Source of the DNA: Spirochaetia bacterium
GTDB lineage: Bacteria; Spirochaetota; Spirochaetia; SP-2023
NCBI GenBank assembly: GCA_965225855.1
Contig: CBDDCK010000005.1
Coordinates: forward strand, 1,952,001-2,016,000
Direction: 5' to 3'
DNA length: 64,000 bases
A program made the position numbers and the translations under genes. Position 1 is the first letter of the stretch. Every line of letters begins with the position of its first letter. Shown here one piece after another: positions 32,829 through 43,743 of the stretch. The notes under the pieces are model-generated. The model worked only from the letters and a program-made list of their open reading frames with translations. It did not search any database and was not told the DNA's origin.

Positions 32829-33521
32829 ATGAGCATTGAATATGGTATTTATAATATCGGCAATAATCGTTATGCTGGACGAGTTATTAATTCGGGGCAG
32901 CTAACGGAAAAGGAATTTTTAGATGAGTTAGATTTGTTATTCCCAGAAGTAGGACGAGACAAATTAGCTGCAATATTTGAACAAGGGCTTCGGATTGCTA
33001 ATGAAAAGCTAGCCGATAATTGGGTAGTGCATACTCCTTTAGTTAGCTTTCGACCTTCGGTCAAAGGTGCTTTCACTAGCAGAGATGACCAATTTAACCC
33101 CGATCGTAATTCAAAAGATGTTTCAGCTTTAAGACCTCGTGCTATGCAAAAAGCAATACAGAATGTTGCTTATACTAAGGTTGCGGTACGGGCAGTCCAA
33201 CCGCATCCTGTCGATCTATATGATGCAAAGTCTCAAACCCATAATGATGAACTAAGTTTAGGCGGTATGGCAGAGCTAAGTGGTGATGAACTGAATTTTG
33301 ATCAAACTAATGATAGTGAAGGAGTGTTCTTTCGCGCGCTTTCCGATGCTACAGAAATAAAGGTAGCCGATTATTTAAAGGTTACCAATAATAGGGTTAT
33401 TTTTAGTGTGCCTTCTAGTAAAATGCCGACTGGAGAATATGTATTGCTAGTACGGCGTAGCTATACCGTACGCAAAGAACTCCGTACTGGTGAGCTCAAT
33501 GTAGTTTTGACTTTGAGTTAA
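32829..33521 (+). CDS. HU-like DNA-binding domain + DUF4469 (Ig-like) protein
   Basis: VHTPLVSFRPSVKGAF..DDQFNP; C-terminal LSGDELNFD...GVFF...VIFSVP...GEYVLLVR; GGAGG RBS. Confidence 0.75.
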   Translation: MSIEYGIYNIGNNRYAGRVINSGQLTEKEFLDELDLLFPEVGRDKLAAIFEQGLRIANEKLADNWVVHTPLVSFRPSVKGAFTSRDDQFNPDRNSKDVSALRPRAMQKAIQNVAYTKVAVRAVQPHPVDLYDAKSQTHNDELSLGGMAELSGDELNFDQTNDSEGVFFRALSDATEIKVADYLKVTNNRVIFSVPSSKMPTGEYVLLVRRSYTVRKELRTGELNVVLTLS

Positions 33522-33617
33522 AAGTTATAGTTTTAGGTAGGGTAATTTTATTGAATATAAATGGAACTTAGTAGTTATTGTTCATAAAATATAATGAAAG
33601 TTTATTGAGGAGTAGTT

Positions 33618-34751
33618 ATGGCTAAAGAACCTTTAAAAATTGATGATTCCCAAAAGAAAAAGGTAATTTTAAACCGTTTGGATATGTCCTTTGGGGAATT
33701 ATTAAACATGTATAAAGAGGGAGAGCTAATTATTAGGCCAGAATATCAAAGAGCCTTCCGCTGGGATAGTACCAAGCAATCGGCTTTTATCGAAAGTATT
33801 TTGTTGGATTTACCAATTCCTTCTATATTTGTCTATTCTACCGTAGAAGATAATACTTACGAGCTACTTGATGGTTTGCAACGTTTATCTACAGTATTTG
33901 CATTTATGAGAGAGCTAAAAAGTAAAGATGGAAAGTCAGATAAGCGCAATGGTTTTCGTCTCAAACAAGCTCCTCTGCTACCTGAATTAGTGGGCAAAGC
34001 CTATGATGGCTTACATATAAAGACTCAAAGAGCGATTAAAAGACGCTATATTCGTATGGATATATTGAGTAGTCAAAGTAGTGAAGATGTAAAATATGAA
34101 TTTTTCAAACGGATAAATTCTAATTCGGAACGTTTGTCTGACCAAGAAATGAGAAATTGTATTTATCATGGAGAATATAATAGCTCTATTGTTGCTTTAG
34201 CAGATGAGATTTCTGGTAATCAGAAATATGTAGACTTTATCTTTGAGCTTTCGGATAAAAAGAAAGATAATATGTATTTAGAAGAGCTAATACTACGCTA
34301 TTATGCTTTTGCAGATACAAAAAAATTAGAACAATTTAACAAAGAAGTAAAAGCATATAGTGATCCTCGCTATTTAGATTATTTTATGCAGATGGTCAAT
34401 CAAAACAAAGAACCATTTATAAAACAAGAATTTTTGGAAAAGATAGAATTATTGGACTCCCTTTATGAACATTGTCCCAAAAGTTTGCGTAATATATTTC
34501 GTAACCCAAATACTGGCCATTTTACCAGGGGAATATATGATTGTATTATGCAAGGTCTTTATAGTTGTTGGGATATAATAGGACTTTCTAAAGATAGAAT
34601 AAGCCATGAAAAGAGACAAAATTTAAAGGAAAAAATAGAAAAATTCAAAACGGAAATAGTGCCTAAACAATATAAAGAAATTAATGAAGACTTTTGGAAA
34701 CCTACAATTGAACTAATTGATATGGCCAAAGAATTTTTTAGCCAATCTTAA
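33618..34751 (+). CDS. DUF262 (ParB/Srx-like, GmrS-type) domain protein
   Basis: RPEYQRAFRW, FIESILLDLPIPSIF, LLDGLQRLST, FKRIN. Confidence 0.9.
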   Translation: MAKEPLKIDDSQKKKVILNRLDMSFGELLNMYKEGELIIRPEYQRAFRWDSTKQSAFIESILLDLPIPSIFVYSTVEDNTYELLDGLQRLSTVFAFMRELKSKDGKSDKRNGFRLKQAPLLPELVGKAYDGLHIKTQRAIKRRYIRMDILSSQSSEDVKYEFFKRINSNSERLSDQEMRNCIYHGEYNSSIVALADEISGNQKYVDFIFELSDKKKDNMYLEELILRYYAFADTKKLEQFNKEVKAYSDPRYLDYFMQMVNQNKEPFIKQEFLEKIELLDSLYEHCPKSLRNIFRNPNTGHFTRGIYDCIMQGLYSCWDIIGLSKDRISHEKRQNLKEKIEKFKTEIVPKQYKEINEDFWKPTIELIDMAKEFFSQS

Positions 34752-34756
34752 ATGTT

Positions 34757-35332
34757 ATGGAATCTGGGTATCAAGTTCCATTTTCGCTGGAACAAGAAAA
34801 ACAACATGTAAACAAGTTTAAAGAAATAATAAATACGAATGATTTTATAAATTTGGCCATTTATCTTTTACTATATGCTGTTTGGGAACGAGTTATTAAG
34901 AAAAGTATAAGATATATTGCAGTTAATATTACAAAACAAGAAGGTTTATATATTGGTGATTTAAATAATGATCTACAACAATATATAATAGCTAAACTGA
35001 TTGTCAGTAATAAGAATAAGGCTTATATAGATATTCAAAAAATATCATTATCTACCATAAAGTTAGAAAGATTGCTAGAGAGTAATATAGATATTCAATT
35101 TGATTCATTAAAGAGTATTGCTAAATATTACCAATATTTTGGCTTAGATCTTCATAGTAAGATTCGTGATAAAAATTATCATGAACCGATAAGGCTTTTA
35201 TGCAGATCTCGGAATAAGATTGCCCATGGAGAGATATTACATATTAGTTACAAAGATGAATCGCGTAATATAGAAAATATTATTGTTACTATTTTTAGTT
35301 TATTTGATATTATTCAAATATTGGTAAATTAG
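34757..35332 (+). CDS. HEPN domain protein (MAE_28990 / RiboL-PSP-like)
   Basis: LLYAVWE helix and RNKIAHG (R-x4-H) HEPN motif; 5 bp downstream of the DUF262 gene. Confidence 0.75.
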   Translation: MESGYQVPFSLEQEKQHVNKFKEIINTNDFINLAIYLLLYAVWERVIKKSIRYIAVNITKQEGLYIGDLNNDLQQYIIAKLIVSNKNKAYIDIQKISLSTIKLERLLESNIDIQFDSLKSIAKYYQYFGLDLHSKIRDKNYHEPIRLLCRSRNKIAHGEILHISYKDESRNIENIIVTIFSLFDIIQILVN

Positions 35333-35429
35333 TTTTACAACAAAAAATAGATAATTACAAAATAATATTACCTAATCTTGGTTTAATTTTAATGATATTT
35401 TGTACTGGGTAGAATATAAGGAATAAGTT

Positions 35430-35762
35430 ATGAAACACAAAATACGTGGCTACTCTGAAGAACTTTATGAGTATATACGCAATAATTCTCTTCGTTTGCC
35501 TAACTATATGGCAGAGCTAAGTGATGATCAACTGAATTTTGATCAAAGTAATGATAGTGAAGGAGTGTTCTTTCGCGCGCTTTCCGATGCTACAGAAATA
35601 AAGGTAGCCGAATATTTAAAGGTTACCAATAATAGGATTATTTTTAGTGTGCCTTCTAGTAAAATGCCGGCTGGAGAATATGTATTGCTAGTACGGCGTA
35701 GCTATACCGTACGTAAAGAACTCGGTACTGGTGAGCTCAATGTAGTTTTGACTTTGAGTTAG
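35430..35762 (+). pseudogene. Chimeric ORF: 5' end of O-methyltransferase (37605) fused in frame to 3' end of DUF4469 gene (32829)
   Basis: First 30 codons match 37605-37694 and the remainder matches 33267-33521; junction TATGGCAGAGCTAA at 35507-35520. Confidence 0.9.
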
Positions 35763-35772
35763 AAGTTATAGA

Positions 35773-36627
35773 ATGCAAGTCCAAGATACCGTATATACTA
35801 AGATAATACTTGGTGATTGCAGAGAAGAACTAAAGCAAATAGATGCTAATACGATTGACTTAGTCTTTACATCACCTCCGTATGCAGATCAAAGAAAAAA
35901 ATCTTACGGAGGCATTCATTTTAACAATTATGTCGATTGGTTTATTCCTATAGGAGAAGAACTACTAAGGGTTTTACGACCAACTGGTACTTTTGTTTTA
36001 AATATCAAAGAAAAAGTTATTAATGGTGAACGAAGTACTTATGTGCTAAAGCTTATTATTGAGTTAAAAAAACAAGGATGGCTATGGACAGAAGAATTTA
36101 TATGGCATAAGAAAAATAGTTATCCAGGAAAATGGCCCAATCGTTTTAGGGATTCATGGGAACGTTTACTGCAGTTCAATAAAGCCAAACATTTTAATAT
36201 GTATCAAGAAGAAGTGATGGTGCCAATGGGGGATTGGGCGACACAAAGGTTAAAGAATCTTAGTTACACAGACACAATTCGTGATGAGTCAAAAGCTGGA
36301 AGTGGCTTCGGTAAGAATATATCTAATTGGGTAAACAGGAATATGGCTTATCCAACTAATGTATTACATATGGCTACTGAATGTTCCAATAAAAACCATA
36401 GTGCGGTATTTCCTAAGTCTTTACCAGAATGGTTCATTCGACTATTTACTAGAGAAGGGGATATTATATTAGACCCTTTTATGGGATCAGGTACAACAAA
36501 TATAGTCGCAAAAGAAATGAATAGAAATTCTATAGGTATTGAAATATTGCCAGAATATTATGAAATTGCCGATAAAGTATTAAATCAGAACAAAACAATA
36601 GAGCAAATTAATATGGAGCTATTATGA
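35773..36627 (+). CDS. Type II DNA methyltransferase (N4-C/N6-A, beta class)
   Basis: TSPPY before DPFMGSGTT. Confidence 0.93.
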   Translation: MQVQDTVYTKIILGDCREELKQIDANTIDLVFTSPPYADQRKKSYGGIHFNNYVDWFIPIGEELLRVLRPTGTFVLNIKEKVINGERSTYVLKLIIELKKQGWLWTEEFIWHKKNSYPGKWPNRFRDSWERLLQFNKAKHFNMYQEEVMVPMGDWATQRLKNLSYTDTIRDESKAGSGFGKNISNWVNRNMAYPTNVLHMATECSNKNHSAVFPKSLPEWFIRLFTREGDIILDPFMGSGTTNIVAKEMNRNSIGIEILPEYYEIADKVLNQNKTIEQINMELL

Positions 36628-37370
36628 ATAAACTAATATTAAGCCAAATTAATAGTTATGTTGAAGCTAATATAGAGATCTTCCATCAAAAAAGAATAGA
36701 ACGGTTAGCTATGCTAAAGCTTAGGAACATATTAAAGAAAAAGAATCCTTATTTATTTAGAGTTAAGAATCTGAATACTTCAGAACAGATAATAAGAAGT
36801 ATTTCAGATGCATTTATTTCTTCGTCAGAAGAAACTATTTTTGGCGACTGGCTAAAAGGGTTGGCTATATTTGTCAATCAGATTGTTTATAATGGTATTA
36901 AGTCAGGAATAAAAAGTATTGATCTTGAATTTAATTACAAAGAACACCGATATATAGTTTCTATTAAGTCTGGTCCCAATTGGGGGAATAGTAGTCAAAT
37001 AGAAAAGATGCGTATGGATTTTAATACAGCGAAGAAAACTTTGAGAACTAGCAATGCAAATATGAGTGTTATTGCTATTAATGGCTGTTGTTATGGAATA
37101 GAAAATAAACCTGATAAAGGAGATTATTTTAAGTATTGTGGTCAATCATTCTGGGCATTTATATCGGGAGAACGGAACTTATATAAAGATATTATCGAAC
37201 CATTAGGTTATAAAGCAAAAGAAAAGAATGATAATTTTAATAATGAGTATTCTAAAATGATAAATAGATTTACAAAAGAATTTATTGATTTTTTTTGTAA
37301 ATTAGATGGTTCTATCGATTGGGCTAAATTAATGGAGTATAATTCAGCCATTAGTTCTTCTAGCAAATAA
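36624..37370 (+). CDS. Type II restriction endonuclease (PmeII/EcoO109I-like)
   Basis: KKKNPYLF, EETIFGD, IDLEF, SIKSGPNWGNSSQI, CGQSFWAFISG; ATGA overlap with MTase. Confidence 0.8.
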   Translation: MNKLILSQINSYVEANIEIFHQKRIERLAMLKLRNILKKKNPYLFRVKNLNTSEQIIRSISDAFISSSEETIFGDWLKGLAIFVNQIVYNGIKSGIKSIDLEFNYKEHRYIVSIKSGPNWGNSSQIEKMRMDFNTAKKTLRTSNANMSVIAINGCCYGIENKPDKGDYFKYCGQSFWAFISGERNLYKDIIEPLGYKAKEKNDNFNNEYSKMINRFTKEFIDFFCKLDGSIDWAKLMEYNSAISSSSK

Positions 37371-37604
37371 TATAGTTAAAATTATGCTGGAAGATTAGGC
37401 TTTTATTGTAACTATAGCGTATTCCAATAAATTAATGGCAGAAATAATAGTGAAATTATTAACAATCACAATAAAAATATCTATATATTAATTCAATACT
37501 ATCTAGTTTGTTTTACAAAAATATGTAATAATCTAATACTGTATTACTAAATTCTGTGTAATTCTGATTATTGATCATACTTTATAAAATATAAGGAATA
37601 AGTT

Positions 37605-38267
37605 ATGAAACACAAAATACGTGGGTACTCTGAAGAAGTTTATGAGTATATACGCAATAATTCTCTTCGTTTGCCTAACTATATGGCAGAGTTAATGCAA
37701 GAAACCAGCCAAATGCCTGAATCTATGATGGCGACTCCTCCAGAGCAAGGGCAGTTGTTATACTTTCTAATGAAAGCTATAGGAGCTAAGCGTGCCATAG
37801 AGGTTGGGGTATTTACCGGCATTGGAACTATGTGGTTGGCAAACGCAGTAGGTGATGATGGCAGTGTGATAGCTTGTGATCTCAATAGTGAATTTACTTC
37901 AATAGCACAGGCATACTGGCATAAAAGCGGTTTGGCCCAAACCATTGATTTACGTTTGGCACCGGCACAACAAACCTTGCAACATTTAATTGATGGAGGC
38001 CAAAGCAGTAGTTTTGACTTTTGTTATATTGATGCCGATAAGGAAGGTTATCATACTTACTATGAACTTTGCTTTCAATTGATACGCCCGGGAGGTATTA
38101 TTGCCTTTGATAATATGCTATATGGGGGTAGGGTTGCCGATAGTAACTGTAATGAAAAACCGATTCCCAACATTCGGGCATTAAATAAAGCTCTCCATAA
38201 TGATAAACGGGTGGAAGTGAGTTTTATGGCTATTGGCGATGGTTTATACTTAGTACGGAAACTTTGA
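37605..38267 (+). CDS. Caffeoyl-CoA-type SAM-dependent O-methyltransferase
   Basis: IEVGVFTG, FDFCYIDADK, GGIIAFDNML, IGDGL. Confidence 0.93.
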   Translation: MKHKIRGYSEEVYEYIRNNSLRLPNYMAELMQETSQMPESMMATPPEQGQLLYFLMKAIGAKRAIEVGVFTGIGTMWLANAVGDDGSVIACDLNSEFTSIAQAYWHKSGLAQTIDLRLAPAQQTLQHLIDGGQSSSFDFCYIDADKEGYHTYYELCFQLIRPGGIIAFDNMLYGGRVADSNCNEKPIPNIRALNKALHNDKRVEVSFMAIGDGLYLVRKL

Positions 38268-38437: not shown

Positions 38438-39388
38438 ATGGATTTATCTATGGATCGATTGAAAAAGTATAAGATTGCCAATGATGTATTTAATAGAAGA
38501 AATGATGTTGCTATTATTCATGGTGATGTAATAGACAAAATACAAATGCTTCCTGATGATACCTTTTCATTGATTATTAGCTCTCCTCCGTATAATATAG
38601 GCAAATCCTATGAAACAAAACAAAGATTAGATAGTTATCTAGTATGGCAAGAAGCTATCATTAGTAAGTTAATAGCAAAGTTAAAAGATAATGGTAGTAT
38701 ATGCTGGCAAGTAGGAAATTATATAGAAAATAAGGAAGTATACCCTTTAGATATATATTTATACCCTGTGTTCAAAAGTTTGGGTCTACAGTTGCGCAAC
38801 CGAATTATATGGCATTTTAATCATGGTTTGCATGCGAACCTTCGATTTTCTGGTAGGTATGAAACTTTATTATGGTTTACCAAAAGCGATAATTATATTT
38901 TCCATTTAGATAATGTCCGGGTGCCTTCTAAGTATCCCGGCAAGCGGCACTATAAAGGAAGCAAGAAAGGTCTTCCTAGTGGTAATCCCCAAGGTAAGAA
39001 TCCTTCGGACTTTTGGCATTTTATTGATGATGAATTTGAAAAGGGTATTGTAGATATTCCCAATGTAAAAGCAAACCACCCAGAAAAAACACTGCACCCG
39101 TGTCAATTCCCTGTCGAGTTAATAGAAAGGTGTATTTTGGCTTTCACCAATCAAGATGACTATGTGCTAGACCCTTTTGCCGGCAGTGGTACAACCGCGA
39201 TTGCAGCATTAAAACAAGATAGAAAAGCTGTATTGATTGAAAAAGAACAAGAATATTGTAACTTAGCCCATAAACGAATCAAAGATTTTGAAAACGGCAT
39301 ATTAAAAACTAGAGAAATTGGCACAAAGATACATGTGCCTTCAGGCAATGATAAAGTTGCCCAAAAACCTAAGGAGTGGCTATTGTGA
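38438..39388 (+). CDS. Type II DNA methyltransferase (N4-C/N6-A, beta class; M.BstYI/BglII-like context)
   Basis: SSPPYNIGK, HPCQFPVEL, DPFAGSGTT. Confidence 0.92.
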   Translation: MDLSMDRLKKYKIANDVFNRRNDVAIIHGDVIDKIQMLPDDTFSLIISSPPYNIGKSYETKQRLDSYLVWQEAIISKLIAKLKDNGSICWQVGNYIENKEVYPLDIYLYPVFKSLGLQLRNRIIWHFNHGLHANLRFSGRYETLLWFTKSDNYIFHLDNVRVPSKYPGKRHYKGSKKGLPSGNPQGKNPSDFWHFIDDEFEKGIVDIPNVKANHPEKTLHPCQFPVELIERCILAFTNQDDYVLDPFAGSGTTAIAALKQDRKAVLIEKEQEYCNLAHKRIKDFENGILKTREIGTKIHVPSGNDKVAQKPKEWLL

Positions 39389-39957
39389 AAATACTAGGAC
39401 AATATAGCTTTAATAATGGTTTAGCGTATATCAATAACCAATATCCAGATTTGTTCAATGAAGTTTCCCAAGTAATTGCTAGGGTAGATGCGAATCTATG
39501 TAAAAATAAAATATCTAAAGAAAAGACTATGCAGGATAAATTACTCTATAGTCCACCTGAATTAAATAAGGAATTTAAAAGGCAATTTATGAAATTTACG
39601 GATTGGAAAAATCATAAAGTGCCATGTGAATATTCTAATCAATATTATGTGAATAACTATATTCCAGAAAAGAATACTCAAAATGCTTACCGAGATATGG
39701 ACTTTGTTAAAAGTAAATTAGGTGTTGAAGTGCAATTTGGCAAGTATTCTTTTATGGTGTACAATGTTTGCGCCAAGATGACTATATTTAAAAACTTGGG
39801 TGTTATCAATGCTGGTATAGAGATAGTACCTATTAAAAATCTAGCTCAAAATATGTCTACTGGCGTTTCTTATTTTGAGCAATTTGTATGGGATTTAGAT
39901 AATAGAGGGACTTCTAATATAGATATACCTGTCTTAATTTTAGGTATTGATAATTAG
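39385..39957 (+). CDS. BglII/BstYI family type II restriction endonuclease
   Basis: KISKEKT...LYSP..LN, DFVK..GVEVQFGKYSF, MSTGVSYFE; likely GTG start overlapping the MTase stop. Confidence 0.87.
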   Translation: MKILGQYSFNNGLAYINNQYPDLFNEVSQVIARVDANLCKNKISKEKTMQDKLLYSPPELNKEFKRQFMKFTDWKNHKVPCEYSNQYYVNNYIPEKNTQNAYRDMDFVKSKLGVEVQFGKYSFMVYNVCAKMTIFKNLGVINAGIEIVPIKNLAQNMSTGVSYFEQFVWDLDNRGTSNIDIPVLILGIDN

Positions 39958-40111
39958 TTTTATATCTATTTATAAATTATTTATTTGATACTTTTACTTT
40001 GATTTATAGATTAATAAATAAATTAAATTTTATATTATAGTAAAGACTATACCATAAAAGTATGCCTGCCACATAAATATTTAAGAGCATTTGATAGACT
40101 AAAGGACAATT

Positions 40112-40846
40112 ATGAGAGATATAAAACAAGCGGATAGCTTGGATTCTACGCTTTTTGATGATCAATTTATCGACTTAACGATTACATCGCCACCGTATAA
40201 TGTAGAAATTCAATACGGTTCAAACAATGATAATTTGGATTACGGTGAATACTTAAACTTTACCAAAGATTGGTTGATCAATGTCTTTAACTGGACTAAA
40301 TCTACAGGCCGTCTATGTTTGAATGTACCTTTAGATAAGAATAAAGGAGGGCAGCAAAGTGTAGGAGCGGATATTACTCAATTAGCTAAGGAGGTTGGGT
40401 GGAACTATCATTCTACTATTATCTGGAATGAACAGAATATCTCTCGTAGGACGGCTTGGGGTAGTTGGTTGTCTGCTTCAGCGCCATATGTGATAGCTCC
40501 GGTTGAGCTTATATTAGTATTGTATAAAGATATATGGAAGAGAAACTATAAAGGACAATCCGATATTACTAGAGATGAATTTATGCTTTGGACGAACGGA
40601 GTTTGGACTTTCAATGGCGAAAGTAAGAAACGAATCGGTCACCCTGCCCCATTTCCCCAAGAACTTCCCTATAGATGTATCAAGCTATTTTCCTATATCG
40701 GGGACTTGATATTTGACCCTTTCTTAGGCTCTGGTACAACTACTTTGGTTGCCGAAAAGTTAAACCGAAACTATATCGGTATAGAAATAGATGAAGTTTA
40801 TTATAACCTTGCTTTAGAAAGAAACAGACACAAGGCTTTATTATGA
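40112..40846 (+). CDS. Type II DNA methyltransferase (beta class)
   Basis: TSPPYNV, TAWGSWLSAS, GHPAPFP, DPFLGSGTT. Confidence 0.92.
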   Translation: MRDIKQADSLDSTLFDDQFIDLTITSPPYNVEIQYGSNNDNLDYGEYLNFTKDWLINVFNWTKSTGRLCLNVPLDKNKGGQQSVGADITQLAKEVGWNYHSTIIWNEQNISRRTAWGSWLSASAPYVIAPVELILVLYKDIWKRNYKGQSDITRDEFMLWTNGVWTFNGESKKRIGHPAPFPQELPYRCIKLFSYIGDLIFDPFLGSGTTTLVAEKLNRNYIGIEIDEVYYNLALERNRHKALL

Positions 40847-41079
40847 ATAAAGAAATAACCCAAGAAGAGATAATTAAAGAGTTTTATCAAGATAATCCTA
40901 AAAGAGATATAGTGCACCCGGAAGTAGTAGATTGGGTAACTCAAGAATATTTCAAAAGAACTGGGAAGATATTTAGAGACCCCGACCGGAGTATTAGAAA
41001 GTTAGCGCAAAGTGGTTTTGTGATAAAAGTAAAAATTCAATTATTTAGTTTATTGATTGTCAATATGATATTATGCTAG
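40843..41079 (+). pseudogene. Truncated cognate restriction endonuclease (N-terminal part of an HNH-type REase)
   Basis: ATGA-coupled to the MTase; RDIVHPEVVDWVT..Y..RTGKIFRDPDRSIRKL resembles N-termini of MTase-linked HNH nucleases; no HNH motif before the stop. Confidence 0.6.
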
Positions 41080-41208
41080 TAAAAATATGATAATAGTAGG
41101 TTGCTAGAATAATCAAACCAGATTGTTTATTAGATATTTTCAGATAGACTTATTGATTGATAAATAGCTTAAATTTGATATTATGGCAAAGGTTGGTACT
41201 GTTTTTAG

Positions 41209-43743
41209 ATGAAATACCAAAATATTCGTGAAGAAGAACTAAAAAACTTGGTGAGCCGGGATATGTTCCCTAAATTTGATTGCACTAGAATTATTGGCAA
41301 TATAGATTTTTGCGTTGGCCCCAAAAATATTAAACAAATGGATAGGCAAGCAGAGCTTTTTGCCTCGCAACCATCGTATTTGTGGGCCGAAGCTAAGAAA
41401 GGCCAAACCGACTTATATAAAGATTTGGTGCAATTGATTTTAACTATTGGCAAGGCGCGTACCTTTGACCAACACCTGCCTCCGAAATATTTGGGGGCGT
41501 TTGATGGTAATTCCATAGCCTTTATACCGTATAATGAAATTCAAGAAATATTTTATTGGAACGACTTTAATTGGAAAGTTCGCTCTTCCGATCACAATAG
41601 TAAAGAGTTTGCCTTAGTATTATCTAAGGTGCAAACTACCTTGCAGCAACAATCTTTAATCTTTGATCTGGAAGCGGATATAAAACAAATTAAAGAGTTT
41701 GTTACAAACAACTTTGTTGCAAGTAGCTTAGAAACCACCTGTAAAATACAAATTGACAAGAACAATTTTATTTCAATCTACAACAAATGGCTAAAAAAAG
41801 TAGAGCCGAGTATAAATGTAAGTTGGGAGCGAGTTAGGAATAATGGCATTCTTAGTGCCGATTTTTATCTGGCCGATTTACTTTCTCACGAAAACAAAAC
41901 CCTAAAAGAGAAACTGTTTGTATTATTACAACACGATCGTTATGAGTTAAACCGAAAGATAAATCAAGATACCGGCTTGTTTGAATCTTCTACAGTCTCA
42001 TTTAAGGATAAGCAACAAGCCCATACGGAATTTTGGAATTTGTACCAGAGACCGCCTAAGGAAGAGTATTGGGACTACATTATTGAAAGGCGCGATCTAT
42101 TAGTTCCGCAGGACATAAGAGAAAGAAAGGGAAGTTTTTTTACGCCACAGGCTTGGGTGGAACTTTCGCAAAAGTATTTGGCCGATAGTTTGGGCGAAGG
42201 CTGGCAAGATGAATTTACAGTTTGGGATTGTGCTGCCGGCACCGGCAACCTATTACATGGCTTAACTAATAAATATAATATTTGGGCCAGTACCATAGAT
42301 AAAGCCGATGTCGATATTATGTTGGATCGGGTGGAAAGTGGCGCAAACTTGCTCAAGAATCATATATTTCAGTTTGACTTCTTAAATGATAGTTGGGACA
42401 AACTTCCCAAACCATTGTTTGATATTATCAATGATCCAAAAAAAAGAAAAAAACTTCTCATCTACATAAACCCGCCTTATGCGGAAACTGCAAATAATAA
42501 AACCGCAGAGAAAGATAGAATTAATAAAAGAGGAGTATCTTTTACAAAGATTCAAGAGTTGTATAGCAAAGAGATAGGTATTGCTACTAAAGAATTATTT
42601 GCTCAATTTTTAATAAGGATTTATAAACAGATTCCTAATTGTTATATAGGTCATTTCTCAACATTGAAACTAATACAAGGCCCCAACTTTAGTAAATTTA
42701 GAGATTGTTATAAAGCTGATTTTAAGAAAGGTTTCGTTGTTCCAGCAAAGACCTTTGATAATGTCCAAGGCAATTTTCCTATAGGTTTTATGATTTGGAA
42801 TTTAGATCATCATAAGAATATAGAAAATATTGATAAAATAATCTTTGATATATTTGATGAATCTAGCATACCATTAGGAAAAAAGAAATTTCATTCCTAT
42901 AAGAAAAATAAATTTATTACAGATTGGTATAGGGCTTATCATACAAGAGAAATAGATGATAGTAATTTAGGAGCTATTGGTTTATATGGTAGTGATTTCC
43001 AACATAATAACTTCATTAGAATTACAGATAGTCAAGAACACCCTAATAGATGGACTTTTATTATCAAAGATAACTTAATGGAAACTTCTATCTACTTTTC
43101 GATTCGTCATAGTTTTGAACCTACTTGGCTCAATGATCGAGACCAATTTTTATATCCCAACGACTCATGGCAATTAGACTATGAGTTTCAAAATAACTGT
43201 TTAGCATTTACTTTGTTCCATACCCAAAACCGCATAACTTCTAATTATGGAGTTAATCATTGGATACCTTTTAGTGAAAAACAACTAGATTCGCAAGGAA
43301 AATTTGAAAGTAATTTGATAGTGGATTTTATCAATGGTAGGTTGGGCAAAGATAAAAACCATAATGGCCAATTATCAAATGGAGATCAATCAATCAAAAT
43401 ATCAGAGCATTGCCATATACCTACCGAGCCGTTAGTATTTTCTTTGGAGGCCCAGGCAGTTTTTGCAGCAGGGCAACAACTTTGGCAATACTACCACCAA
43501 ACTATCCAATTACAAGCCGATGATTCCAATCCTGCCAGTGCGGAATATAATAGAAAAATGGTCAATGCTTCCTATTACGACATCAAAGAATACTTTCAAG
43601 GCCGCAACGATAAAGGCCGAATGAACCCCAAAAGCTCTAATCCCCGCTATAATGAATTATTGGCGCAGCTTAAGAATAACATGGAAACACTCAAAGGCAA
43701 AATACAACCCAAAGTCTACCAACACGGCTTTTTGCTAGAGTGA
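41209..43743 (+). CDS. Type IIG-like fused restriction-modification enzyme (N6-adenine MTase)
   Basis: N-terminal IDF...WAEAKKG nuclease-like motif, KGSFFTP, WDCAAGTGNL, NPPY. Confidence 0.8.
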   Translation: MKYQNIREEELKNLVSRDMFPKFDCTRIIGNIDFCVGPKNIKQMDRQAELFASQPSYLWAEAKKGQTDLYKDLVQLILTIGKARTFDQHLPPKYLGAFDGNSIAFIPYNEIQEIFYWNDFNWKVRSSDHNSKEFALVLSKVQTTLQQQSLIFDLEADIKQIKEFVTNNFVASSLETTCKIQIDKNNFISIYNKWLKKVEPSINVSWERVRNNGILSADFYLADLLSHENKTLKEKLFVLLQHDRYELNRKINQDTGLFESSTVSFKDKQQAHTEFWNLYQRPPKEEYWDYIIERRDLLVPQDIRERKGSFFTPQAWVELSQKYLADSLGEGWQDEFTVWDCAAGTGNLLHGLTNKYNIWASTIDKADVDIMLDRVESGANLLKNHIFQFDFLNDSWDKLPKPLFDIINDPKKRKKLLIYINPPYAETANNKTAEKDRINKRGVSFTKIQELYSKEIGIATKELFAQFLIRIYKQIPNCYIGHFSTLKLIQGPNFSKFRDCYKADFKKGFVVPAKTFDNVQGNFPIGFMIWNLDHHKNIENIDKIIFDIFDESSIPLGKKKFHSYKKNKFITDWYRAYHTREIDDSNLGAIGLYGSDFQHNNFIRITDSQEHPNRWTFIIKDNLMETSIYFSIRHSFEPTWLNDRDQFLYPNDSWQLDYEFQNNCLAFTLFHTQNRITSNYGVNHWIPFSEKQLDSQGKFESNLIVDFINGRLGKDKNHNGQLSNGDQSIKISEHCHIPTEPLVFSLEAQAVFAAGQQLWQYYHQTIQLQADDSNPASAEYNRKMVNASYYDIKEYFQGRNDKGRMNPKSSNPRYNELLAQLKNNMETLKGKIQPKVYQHGFLLE

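Follow-up and report, generated by a model that had tools for sequence, protein, structure and literature searches.

How two unrelated defence cassettes come to stand side by side between the same two genes, at a locus with no integrase, is the question raised by positions 32829..38267 of a 64,000-nt stretch of a Spirochaetia bacterium genome (GCA_965225855.1, contig CBDDCK010000005.1), hereafter the window, in whose positions all plain coordinates are given. The locus comprises, in order, a DUF4469 gene, cassette X, an open frame in which the 5' end of an O-methyltransferase (OMT) gene is fused to the 3' end of DUF4469 (the chimera), cassette Y, and the intact OMT gene (Table 1); the initial annotation of the stretch had this order and its coordinates right throughout. 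Our analysis suggests that the arrangement probably arose when two alleles of one DUF4469-OMT slot were stacked by a single recombination, in which one flank paired by homology and the second end was sealed at a 10-bp match occurring by chance, and the stack is old and, as far as the data go, stable.

The locus contains two pairs of direct repeats that interlock, the first copy of the OMT-5' repeat passing into the second copy of the DUF4469-3' repeat at 35507-35516. The DUF4469-3' copies (33266-33530 and 35507-35771) show 9 differences in 265 bp and the OMT-5' copies (35413-35516 and 37588-37691, spaced 2175 bp apart) 2 differences in 104 bp, so that the direct repeats of ~260 and ~110 bp described initially are real and of nearly the stated lengths. 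The final shared base ahead of the cassettes is 33530/35771 and the initial shared base past them is 35413/37588; the end bases given for sharp cassette boundaries were therefore accurate, but the right edge is blurred, the ~120 bp ahead of each OMT start being weakly similar (p=0.0055 by global and 0.18 by local alignment). Similarity falls from 98% in the OMT start to this weak signal in the preceding 120 bp, as two old haplotypes would show. A promoter-like site stands in register upstream of both OMT starts (35334 / 37512), and such sites are no more frequent than chance (30 found vs 34.6 expected). It is also correct, as annotated, that a 14-letter motif recurs in frame at 33266, 35507 and 37682, and it is found nowhere else in the genome. 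The microhomology itself had been put at 14 bp; in fact DUF4469 and OMT are identical over 10 bp at the junction, or match at 13/14 with one mismatch. The two genes have three matches that good, one of which is a 14-bp exact match that was not used, and in 500 codon-shuffled trials a 10-bp match appeared in 50% and a 13/14 match in 11%. The junction microhomology is thus at chance level and marks no dedicated site. A dedicated recombination site or integron-like cassette array was rejected as an explanation, the site being at chance level and present in 3 copies only, all coding and with no linked recombinase, and a DNA hairpin at the junction was likewise rejected (z -0.5). The locus is integrase-free, as first proposed: two tyrosine recombinases were found in the genome, both >1 Mb off or on another contig, and none near the locus. 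A genome-wide screen returned 81 near two-copy repeats with 2 interlocked pairs, namely the present locus and one in a lipoprotein-like repeat region.

Judged by this geometry, X and Y are likely two alleles of the DUF4469-OMT slot, because X runs out into an OMT start of its own, and Y is preceded by its own copy of the DUF4469 end. Both cassettes have ~29% GC vs 40% in the flanks. Their contents are unrelated and both are defence modules, as anticipated, with profile matches to DUF262 and HEPN in the one and to a methylase and a nuclease in the other.

Six sequencing runs from two studies were listed, five of which contain part of the stretch, and contigs from five runs (X1-X5) were compared with the window, X1-X3 possibly being the source sample. 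The data are metagenomic, the repeats are longer than the 31-letter word and no listed contig crosses the whole stretch, as would be the case if the assembly had fused two strain haplotypes, the possibility against which the initial annotation had asked for a check. Two haplotypes would, however, divide the flank depth between X and Y, and each stands at full depth: in run X1 depth is 8.68 in cassette X and 8.8 in cassette Y, with 8.98 and 8.94 in the flanks, and the unitig spanning the junction has a depth of 9.0 in X1 and 8.8 in X2. X, Y and the junction being at full depth, the stack is not two haplotypes; the junction is moreover present in reads of two studies and on an independent assembly, and an artefact is hardly credible. 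In run X4, from the other study, a contig (35487-35901) is identical across the junction and has 10 differences from 35570 on, and further contigs of X, Y and OMT stop at the same repeat nodes. The chimera, methylase, nuclease, OMT and downstream methylase are also encoded on an 8,844-bp ENA contig; this contig and X4 are counted as one independent strain, because 7/8 differences of its chimera are identical to those of X4. Divergence of this strain from the window is 1.6% for X, 4% for Y and 1.9% for OMT, and the same junction at such a distance indicates that the stack predates the split of the two strains. No X-X or Y-Y duplicate with the same junction turned up in the five runs, where gaps in the cover of X4 and X5 were not taken for absence. 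In X1 and X3, loose contig ends enter unlike sequence before 35292 and after 38416, which were not seen again in a later contig comparison; they perhaps come from a sister strain of low depth whose content next to OMT is different, or are unrelated AT-rich matches.

Among 40 related genomes the DUF4469-OMT interval is absent, with methylase or restriction-modification (RM) homologues only in other contexts, and none of the 40 has a single repeat copy without insert. In the three genomes of the same genus these queries detected neither OMT nor DUF4469, bar one weak 28% OMT match, and the region upstream of trpS differs in all three. DUF4469 scans of metagenome and genome collections returned no match. 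A 34,271-bp ENA contig of a sister carries DUF4469 (88%), OMT (81%) and the downstream methylase, their linkage being read solely from the common 34,271-bp size; no chimera from it was found among proteins of 60-193 aa, and none of its proteins belongs to the 90% clusters of X or Y. The comparison across strains that had been proposed at the outset thus returned a second strain with the same stack, but no varied single cassettes, and 40 related genomes lack the interval. The slot, initially called exchangeable, fares similarly: its geometry fits two alleles joined at a microhomology, but exchange in the present day is not borne out, as no single-cassette allele was seen.

The chimera is an old, dead, decaying scar, because it has lost a glycine that is invariant in its homologues: Gly152 is kept in 149/149 (the best 150 of 834 matches, minus the chimera) and replaced by Asp in both strains' chimeras. 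The window chimera also lacks Arg219 (R or K in 132/147 homologues), and that of the second strain lacks Pro195 (147/148) and Phe167 (F/Y in 149/149). When the two chimeras are compared, 7/8 sense-codon differences alter the residue, close to the neutral expectation of about three in four. After ~17 substitutions the reading frame would stay open by chance in ~56% of cases, so that selection is not needed to explain the open frame. Residue differences between the strains amount to 8/110 in the chimera, 17/248 in the nuclease, 2/284 in the methylase and 5/220 in OMT. The chimera stop and the methylase start are 10 nt apart, the same gap as expected in an intact DUF4469-Y allele; translational coupling to the methylase, as had been suggested, would thus be no gain of the chimera.

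Under the stacking that we favour, a chromosome with DUF4469-X-OMT would have met DNA with DUF4469-Y-OMT, or the reverse, and paired with it in one long flank, while the other end joined OMT-5' to DUF4469-3' and neither cassette was lost. The genome contains the ComEC and DprA families, and Ku was not found in it (94% complete). Retention may owe to repeats of only 265 and 104 bp, to both defences being useful and to an RM cassette whose loss would kill the cell. Type II RM genes withstand replacement because cells that lose them are killed post-segregationally (PMC3031569, PMC2993543), and such killing would promote a stack's origin as well as its persistence.

The junction is also matched by a spacer in one of the genome's own CRISPR arrays. 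Spacer 48/55 (C5:902014-902043; array C5:898877-902541, 36-bp repeats) matches the chimera at 35510-35539 in 30/30 positions and the intact DUF4469 gene in 28/30, and it has the Asp152 decay allele. The type II-C locus to which it belongs (C5:896071-906825) has 55 spacers, a 1242-aa Cas9 with an open frame and cas2 directly after cas9; its own cas1 is absent, the sole cas1 found being that of a second type II-C locus. With the target strand set by the anti-repeat of the trans-activating CRISPR RNA (tracrRNA), the side of the protospacer-adjacent motif (PAM) consists of the OMT-derived bases 35509-35502. Cas9 usually cuts 3 bp from the PAM, and by this geometry the predicted cut, 35512/35513, lies inside the microhomology. 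A full protospacer match, cas9 and the tracrRNA are all present for spacer 48. Self-matches are found for 14/577 spacers in three arrays, 11 of them perfect, and the seven whose context was read lie in ordinary genes or intergenic DNA. With uniform sampling, chance would place a match in the 5.4-kb locus with a probability of 2%, on the junction with 2e-4 and with its cut inside the junction with 4e-5, figures that serve as a guide only for a match found post hoc. The spacer likely postdates the junction, given its Asp152 decay allele and the young look of the arrays. Considered by itself, its origin has about an even chance of being an uptake connected with breaks, or with circles, at the junction; plain chance seems somewhat less probable, and a junction made by Cas9 improbable.

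With regard to the PAM, no viral contig matched spacer 48 exactly; 1/4 other spacer probes matched, with 5 mismatches outside the probe, and searches of plasmids, same-genus genomes and a repeat scan gave no match. The one perfect foreign match has a flank that agrees with the chimera flank at positions 5-6 but not 7-8, and other flanks disagree. Near matches of spacers 38 and 52 were dropped as PAM evidence, as their targets are spacers of the type V-A array, and so were two crAss-like or unclassified phage matches with 6-10 mismatches. Spacer overlaps gave no flank of >3 letters for the spacer-48 array; in the second II-C array TC stands at positions 5-6 in 3/5 overlap-derived flanks but in 0/6 self-matches, an indication that self-matches persist where no PAM is present. 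Under the favoured stacking, spacer 48 would be a later acquisition from junction-bearing DNA, be it the chromosome, an excised circle or DNA of a relative, and would likely be tolerated for want of a working PAM.

Several further features of the CRISPR loci were observed. The spacer-48 array is split at its 5' end by an IS1595 transposase and a methylase, and a single perfect repeat, followed by the same hairpin, stands at C5:1152750. The second type II-C system (C5:662644-681458) has 201 spacers, cas9, cas1 and cas2; 6 of its spacers have targets in the own genome, in one case 114 sites within a repeated lipoprotein-like gene family. A type V-A-like array (C5:1074337-1094690) has 323 perfect repeats and near-identical spacers in common with the first II-C array, and therefore both sampled the same invader. 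Spacers 24 and 27 (C5:900431-900460 and 900629-900658) correspond to major capsid genes of microviruses, one of them at 30/30 (OM522998.1), and a microvirus likely infects this lineage.

The same final sequence would be reached in two steps, by a microhomology-mediated tandem duplication of DUF4469-3'-cassette-OMT-5' followed by exchange of one copy through homologous recombination, a swap that would reduce the 2.2-kb repeat to 265 + 104 bp and stabilise it. Transformation does yield tandem duplications in Streptococcus pneumoniae, but these rely on insertion sequence (IS) repeats and extend over 100-900 kb (PMC3784515), and a rare, unstable duplication would have to exist when the donor allele arrives, so that this route appears unlikely. 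Alternatively, the slot could be an active accordion that grows and shrinks today, as the initial annotation had proposed, the repeats looping either cassette out as a junction-bearing circle and alleles being regained. Loop-out of either cassette would give back a clean single allele, the spacer lies on the junction that both circles would carry, spacers are acquired near breaks and recombining DNA (PMC5737086), and a second repeat-bracketed defence stack exists at C5:1005-1017 kb. However, the junction is unchanged across 2-4% divergence, and X, Y and the junction stand at flank depth, with no depth loss in the deepest sample; nor is a third layer or a joint skipping a cassette found among the listed contigs of the five runs, although this is a weak test, as contigs drop rare variants and cannot phase the 265-bp repeat. 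These observations speak weakly against the accordion, which we regard as distinctly unlikely.

The junction might also have been made by Cas9, if spacer 48 directed it to cut a DUF4469 allele whose broken end was joined to OMT-5' at the microhomology, swapping the PAM and keeping both cassettes. The predicted cut inside the 10-bp join (a chance of ~4e-5 given 11 perfect self-matching spacers), the disuse of the longest match between the two genes (14 bp), the open Cas9 frame and the tracrRNA anti-repeat would all agree with this, and microhomology joining after CRISPR self-cuts is known, though it yields deletions (PMC6990116). The spacer, on the other hand, has Asp at the invariant Gly152, so that its source copy was already dead, while intact alleles have Gly (the window gene and P0012, on the 34,271-bp contig); furthermore, the 58, 202 and 323 repeat copies are all perfect and the single-site II-C self-matches are without mismatch, so that the arrays look younger than the junction, and an origin by Cas9 is very unlikely. 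A bolder reading, which we consider unlikely, holds that the stack is a live, integrase-free switch recorded and possibly policed by the cell's own CRISPR. Recombination between the repeats would stall at the junction, where both homologies end, and release DNA ends or circles, one of which Cas1-Cas2 would have caught as spacer 48, a guide for the stacked state but for neither single allele. If this were true and the PAM worked, Cas9 would drive collapse to X-only or Y-only, and stacks that copy their flanks, of which C5:1005-1017 kb would be a second case, would be a general route of defence-island growth in the lineage.

Returning to the stacking of two alleles by one recombination, several points weigh against it or bound it. 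The end product fits one step and duplication-then-replacement equally, donor and recipient are not assignable from the sequence, and no single-cassette or collapsed allele was seen, the term alleles being grounded in geometry. No listed contig spans the whole stack, and short-read contigs do not phase it. The second strain is at depth 2 in X4, with the intact DUF4469 outside the cover; in X5, DUF4469-3' continues into X and Y into the intact OMT, and the junction contig is absent among the X5 contigs listed. The nuclease diverges as much as the chimera, so that protein divergence alone is no proof of decay, and uptake of the spacer by chance leaves its position on the junction unexplained. 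Competence, RM activity and RM addiction are putative.

Table 1. Features of the DUF4469-OMT locus, in positions of the 64,000-nt window
Feature	Position	Strand	Basis
HU-like DNA-binding + DUF4469 gene, intact, 230 aa, left flank	32829..33521	+	PF14848 E 1e-9, PF14734 E 9e-12
DUF4469-3' repeat copy 1, 265 bp, microhomology 33266-33275 at its start	33266..33530	+	sequence comparison
CRISPR spacer 48 match in intact DUF4469 gene, 28/30	33269..33298	-	sequence match
Cassette X, 1882 bp, 28.7% GC	33531..35412	+	
GmrSD-N/DUF262 protein, 377 aa, DGLQR motif, PD-T4-2_A/NsnA-like	33618..34751	+	PF03235 E 1.6e-28; PADLOC NsnA 2e-54, PD-T4-2_A 1e-36
HEPN protein, 191 aa, with R-x4-6-H motif	34757..35332	+	PF18737 E 2e-10, PF18735 E 1e-7; no PADLOC match
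OMT upstream region on X side, weakly conserved, resembles ~37465-37587	35290..35412	+	alignment
OMT-5' repeat copy 1, 104 bp	35413..35516	+	
OMT-5'::DUF4469-3' chimeric open reading frame, 110 aa, a decaying scar	35430..35762	+	
Junction microhomology, 10 bp exact (13/14 up to 35520)	35507..35516	+	junction unitigs in runs X1, X2, X4
Protospacer, 30/30 to spacer 48 of type II-C array	35510..35539	-	predicted cut 35512/35513
DUF4469-3' repeat copy 2	35507..35771	+	
Cassette Y, 1816 bp, 29.8% GC	35772..37587	+	
N6A/N4C DNA methylase, 284 aa, SPPY + DPFxGSG motifs	35773..36627	+	PF01555 E 4e-46
EcoO109I-family type II restriction endonuclease, 248 aa, frame open in two strains	36624..37370	+	PF14511 E 5e-86
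OMT-5' repeat copy 2 = start of intact OMT gene; microhomology 37682-37691	37588..37691	+	
O-methyltransferase gene, intact, 220 aa, right flank	37605..38267	+	PF01596 E 3e-60

As regards the cassettes themselves, X has a two-domain make-up of DUF262 and HEPN, and its first gene scores better on NsnA (Menshen; 2e-54) than on PD-T4-2_A (1e-36); its HEPN gene has no PADLOC match and matches PF18735, a family listed for PD-T4-2. In Y, the methylase and nuclease genes adjoin and have catalytic motifs, and together they would form a type II RM system. The nuclease had been labelled PmeII-like, for which there is no NCBIfam match; it belongs to Pfam RE_EcoO109I. No relative with a solved structure was found for the Y proteins, and no tie between palindrome avoidance in the genome and cassette Y was found. 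Several palindromes are strongly avoided (of expected: GATATC 0.22, TTCGAA 0.23, TCTAGA 0.24, GAATTC 0.38), as would fit a large number of type II RM systems being active. OMT is followed downstream by more RM genes, and the DUF4469-OMT slot thus lies at the edge of a defence island. Positions 38438-43743 encode a methylase with a BglII-family nuclease, a second methylase, a 78-aa frame and an 844-aa type IIG-like protein, and an inverted repeat lies in the island beyond OMT (39735-39761 / 40048-40074).

Comparable arrangements occur elsewhere in the genome. At C5:1005-1017 kb (L022:217-12081), the 3' end of an RM fusion gene is present three times and ~1 kb with the start of an AAA_13 (RloC-like) gene twice; these repeats bracket two unrelated, partly decayed cassettes. 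Two HU/DUF4469-like paralogues edge variable, repeat-rich regions (L021:3830-19875, that is C5:923.8-940 kb, and L024:2827-13969), the former with two further DUF262+HEPN-like pairs between 132-bp tandem repeats; three other such paralogues stand in ordinary contexts. At C4:36.8-43.2 kb (L027:3788-10201), duplicated genes 3.5 kb apart, which from their motifs we assume to be McrB-like, enclose another two-gene cassette, and the target of the self-matching spacer 44 lies just past this duplication, at C4:45188.

Among known systems, the locus can be compared with the insertion of RM genes with long target duplication (PMC2853133), a class with R and M genes, an insert of <20 kb, direct repeats of >30 bp across a translation start or stop, no integrase and gene fusion as a by-product, and typical of competent species. 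Read as an insert between the OMT-5' repeats, cassette Y has the features of this class, namely R and M genes, a 2175-bp spacing, a 104-bp repeat, no integrase or tRNA site and coding repeats. The class as described there has an empty target and one repeat pair, whereas here two repeat pairs interlock, the target was already filled and each cassette has its own copy of a flank gene. Unrelated low-GC cassettes between the same flanks also recall allelic defence substitution and core defence hotspots, for which exchange by homologous recombination in the flanks has been proposed (PMC2853133, PMC10250203); in those cases, however, alleles replace each other, whereas here both are kept in tandem and the flanks are not core in the genus. 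Homology-facilitated illegitimate recombination combines one homologous anchor with a join at a 3-10 bp match (PMC6382021) and likewise uses a short chance microhomology, here 10 bp exact with a null probability of 0.5. It is known from laboratory transformation with foreign DNA, as a single RecA-dependent event in naturally competent cells, whereas here the mechanism is deduced from the end product, and here the join is between the two flank genes and gives gain with partial duplication. Cassette X has the same two-domain make-up as PD-T4-2 (DUF262 + HEPN; PMC9519451, PMC10952713), although its HEPN is without a PADLOC match and its activity is predicted, and as the MAE_28990 HEPN + ParB operons (PMC3710099). 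Spacers derived from the host itself are frequent; they originate near breaks and persist where targeting fails (PMC6990116, PMC5737086); spacer 48 differs in overlapping a recombination junction, so that it tells the stack from both single alleles. In the literature searched, with subscription journals largely outside it, we found neither a two-allele defence-slot stack made through a flank-gene chimera nor a native spacer across such a junction. How integrase-free defence islands gain, and not merely swap, systems is an open question in the hotspot literature (PMC10250203), and the present locus offers a clean fossil of one gain route, with both slot alleles kept, a readable scar and an age shared by diverged strains. 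The pattern of the scar, the 5' end of the right flank gene fused to the 3' end of the left one between two cassettes, can be searched for in any genome, and the spacer raises the question of whether native Cas9 records, causes or reverses stacking. Together, these comparisons place the locus as a variant of allelic RM substitution and of insertion with long target duplication, to which the spacer on the scar is a new addition.

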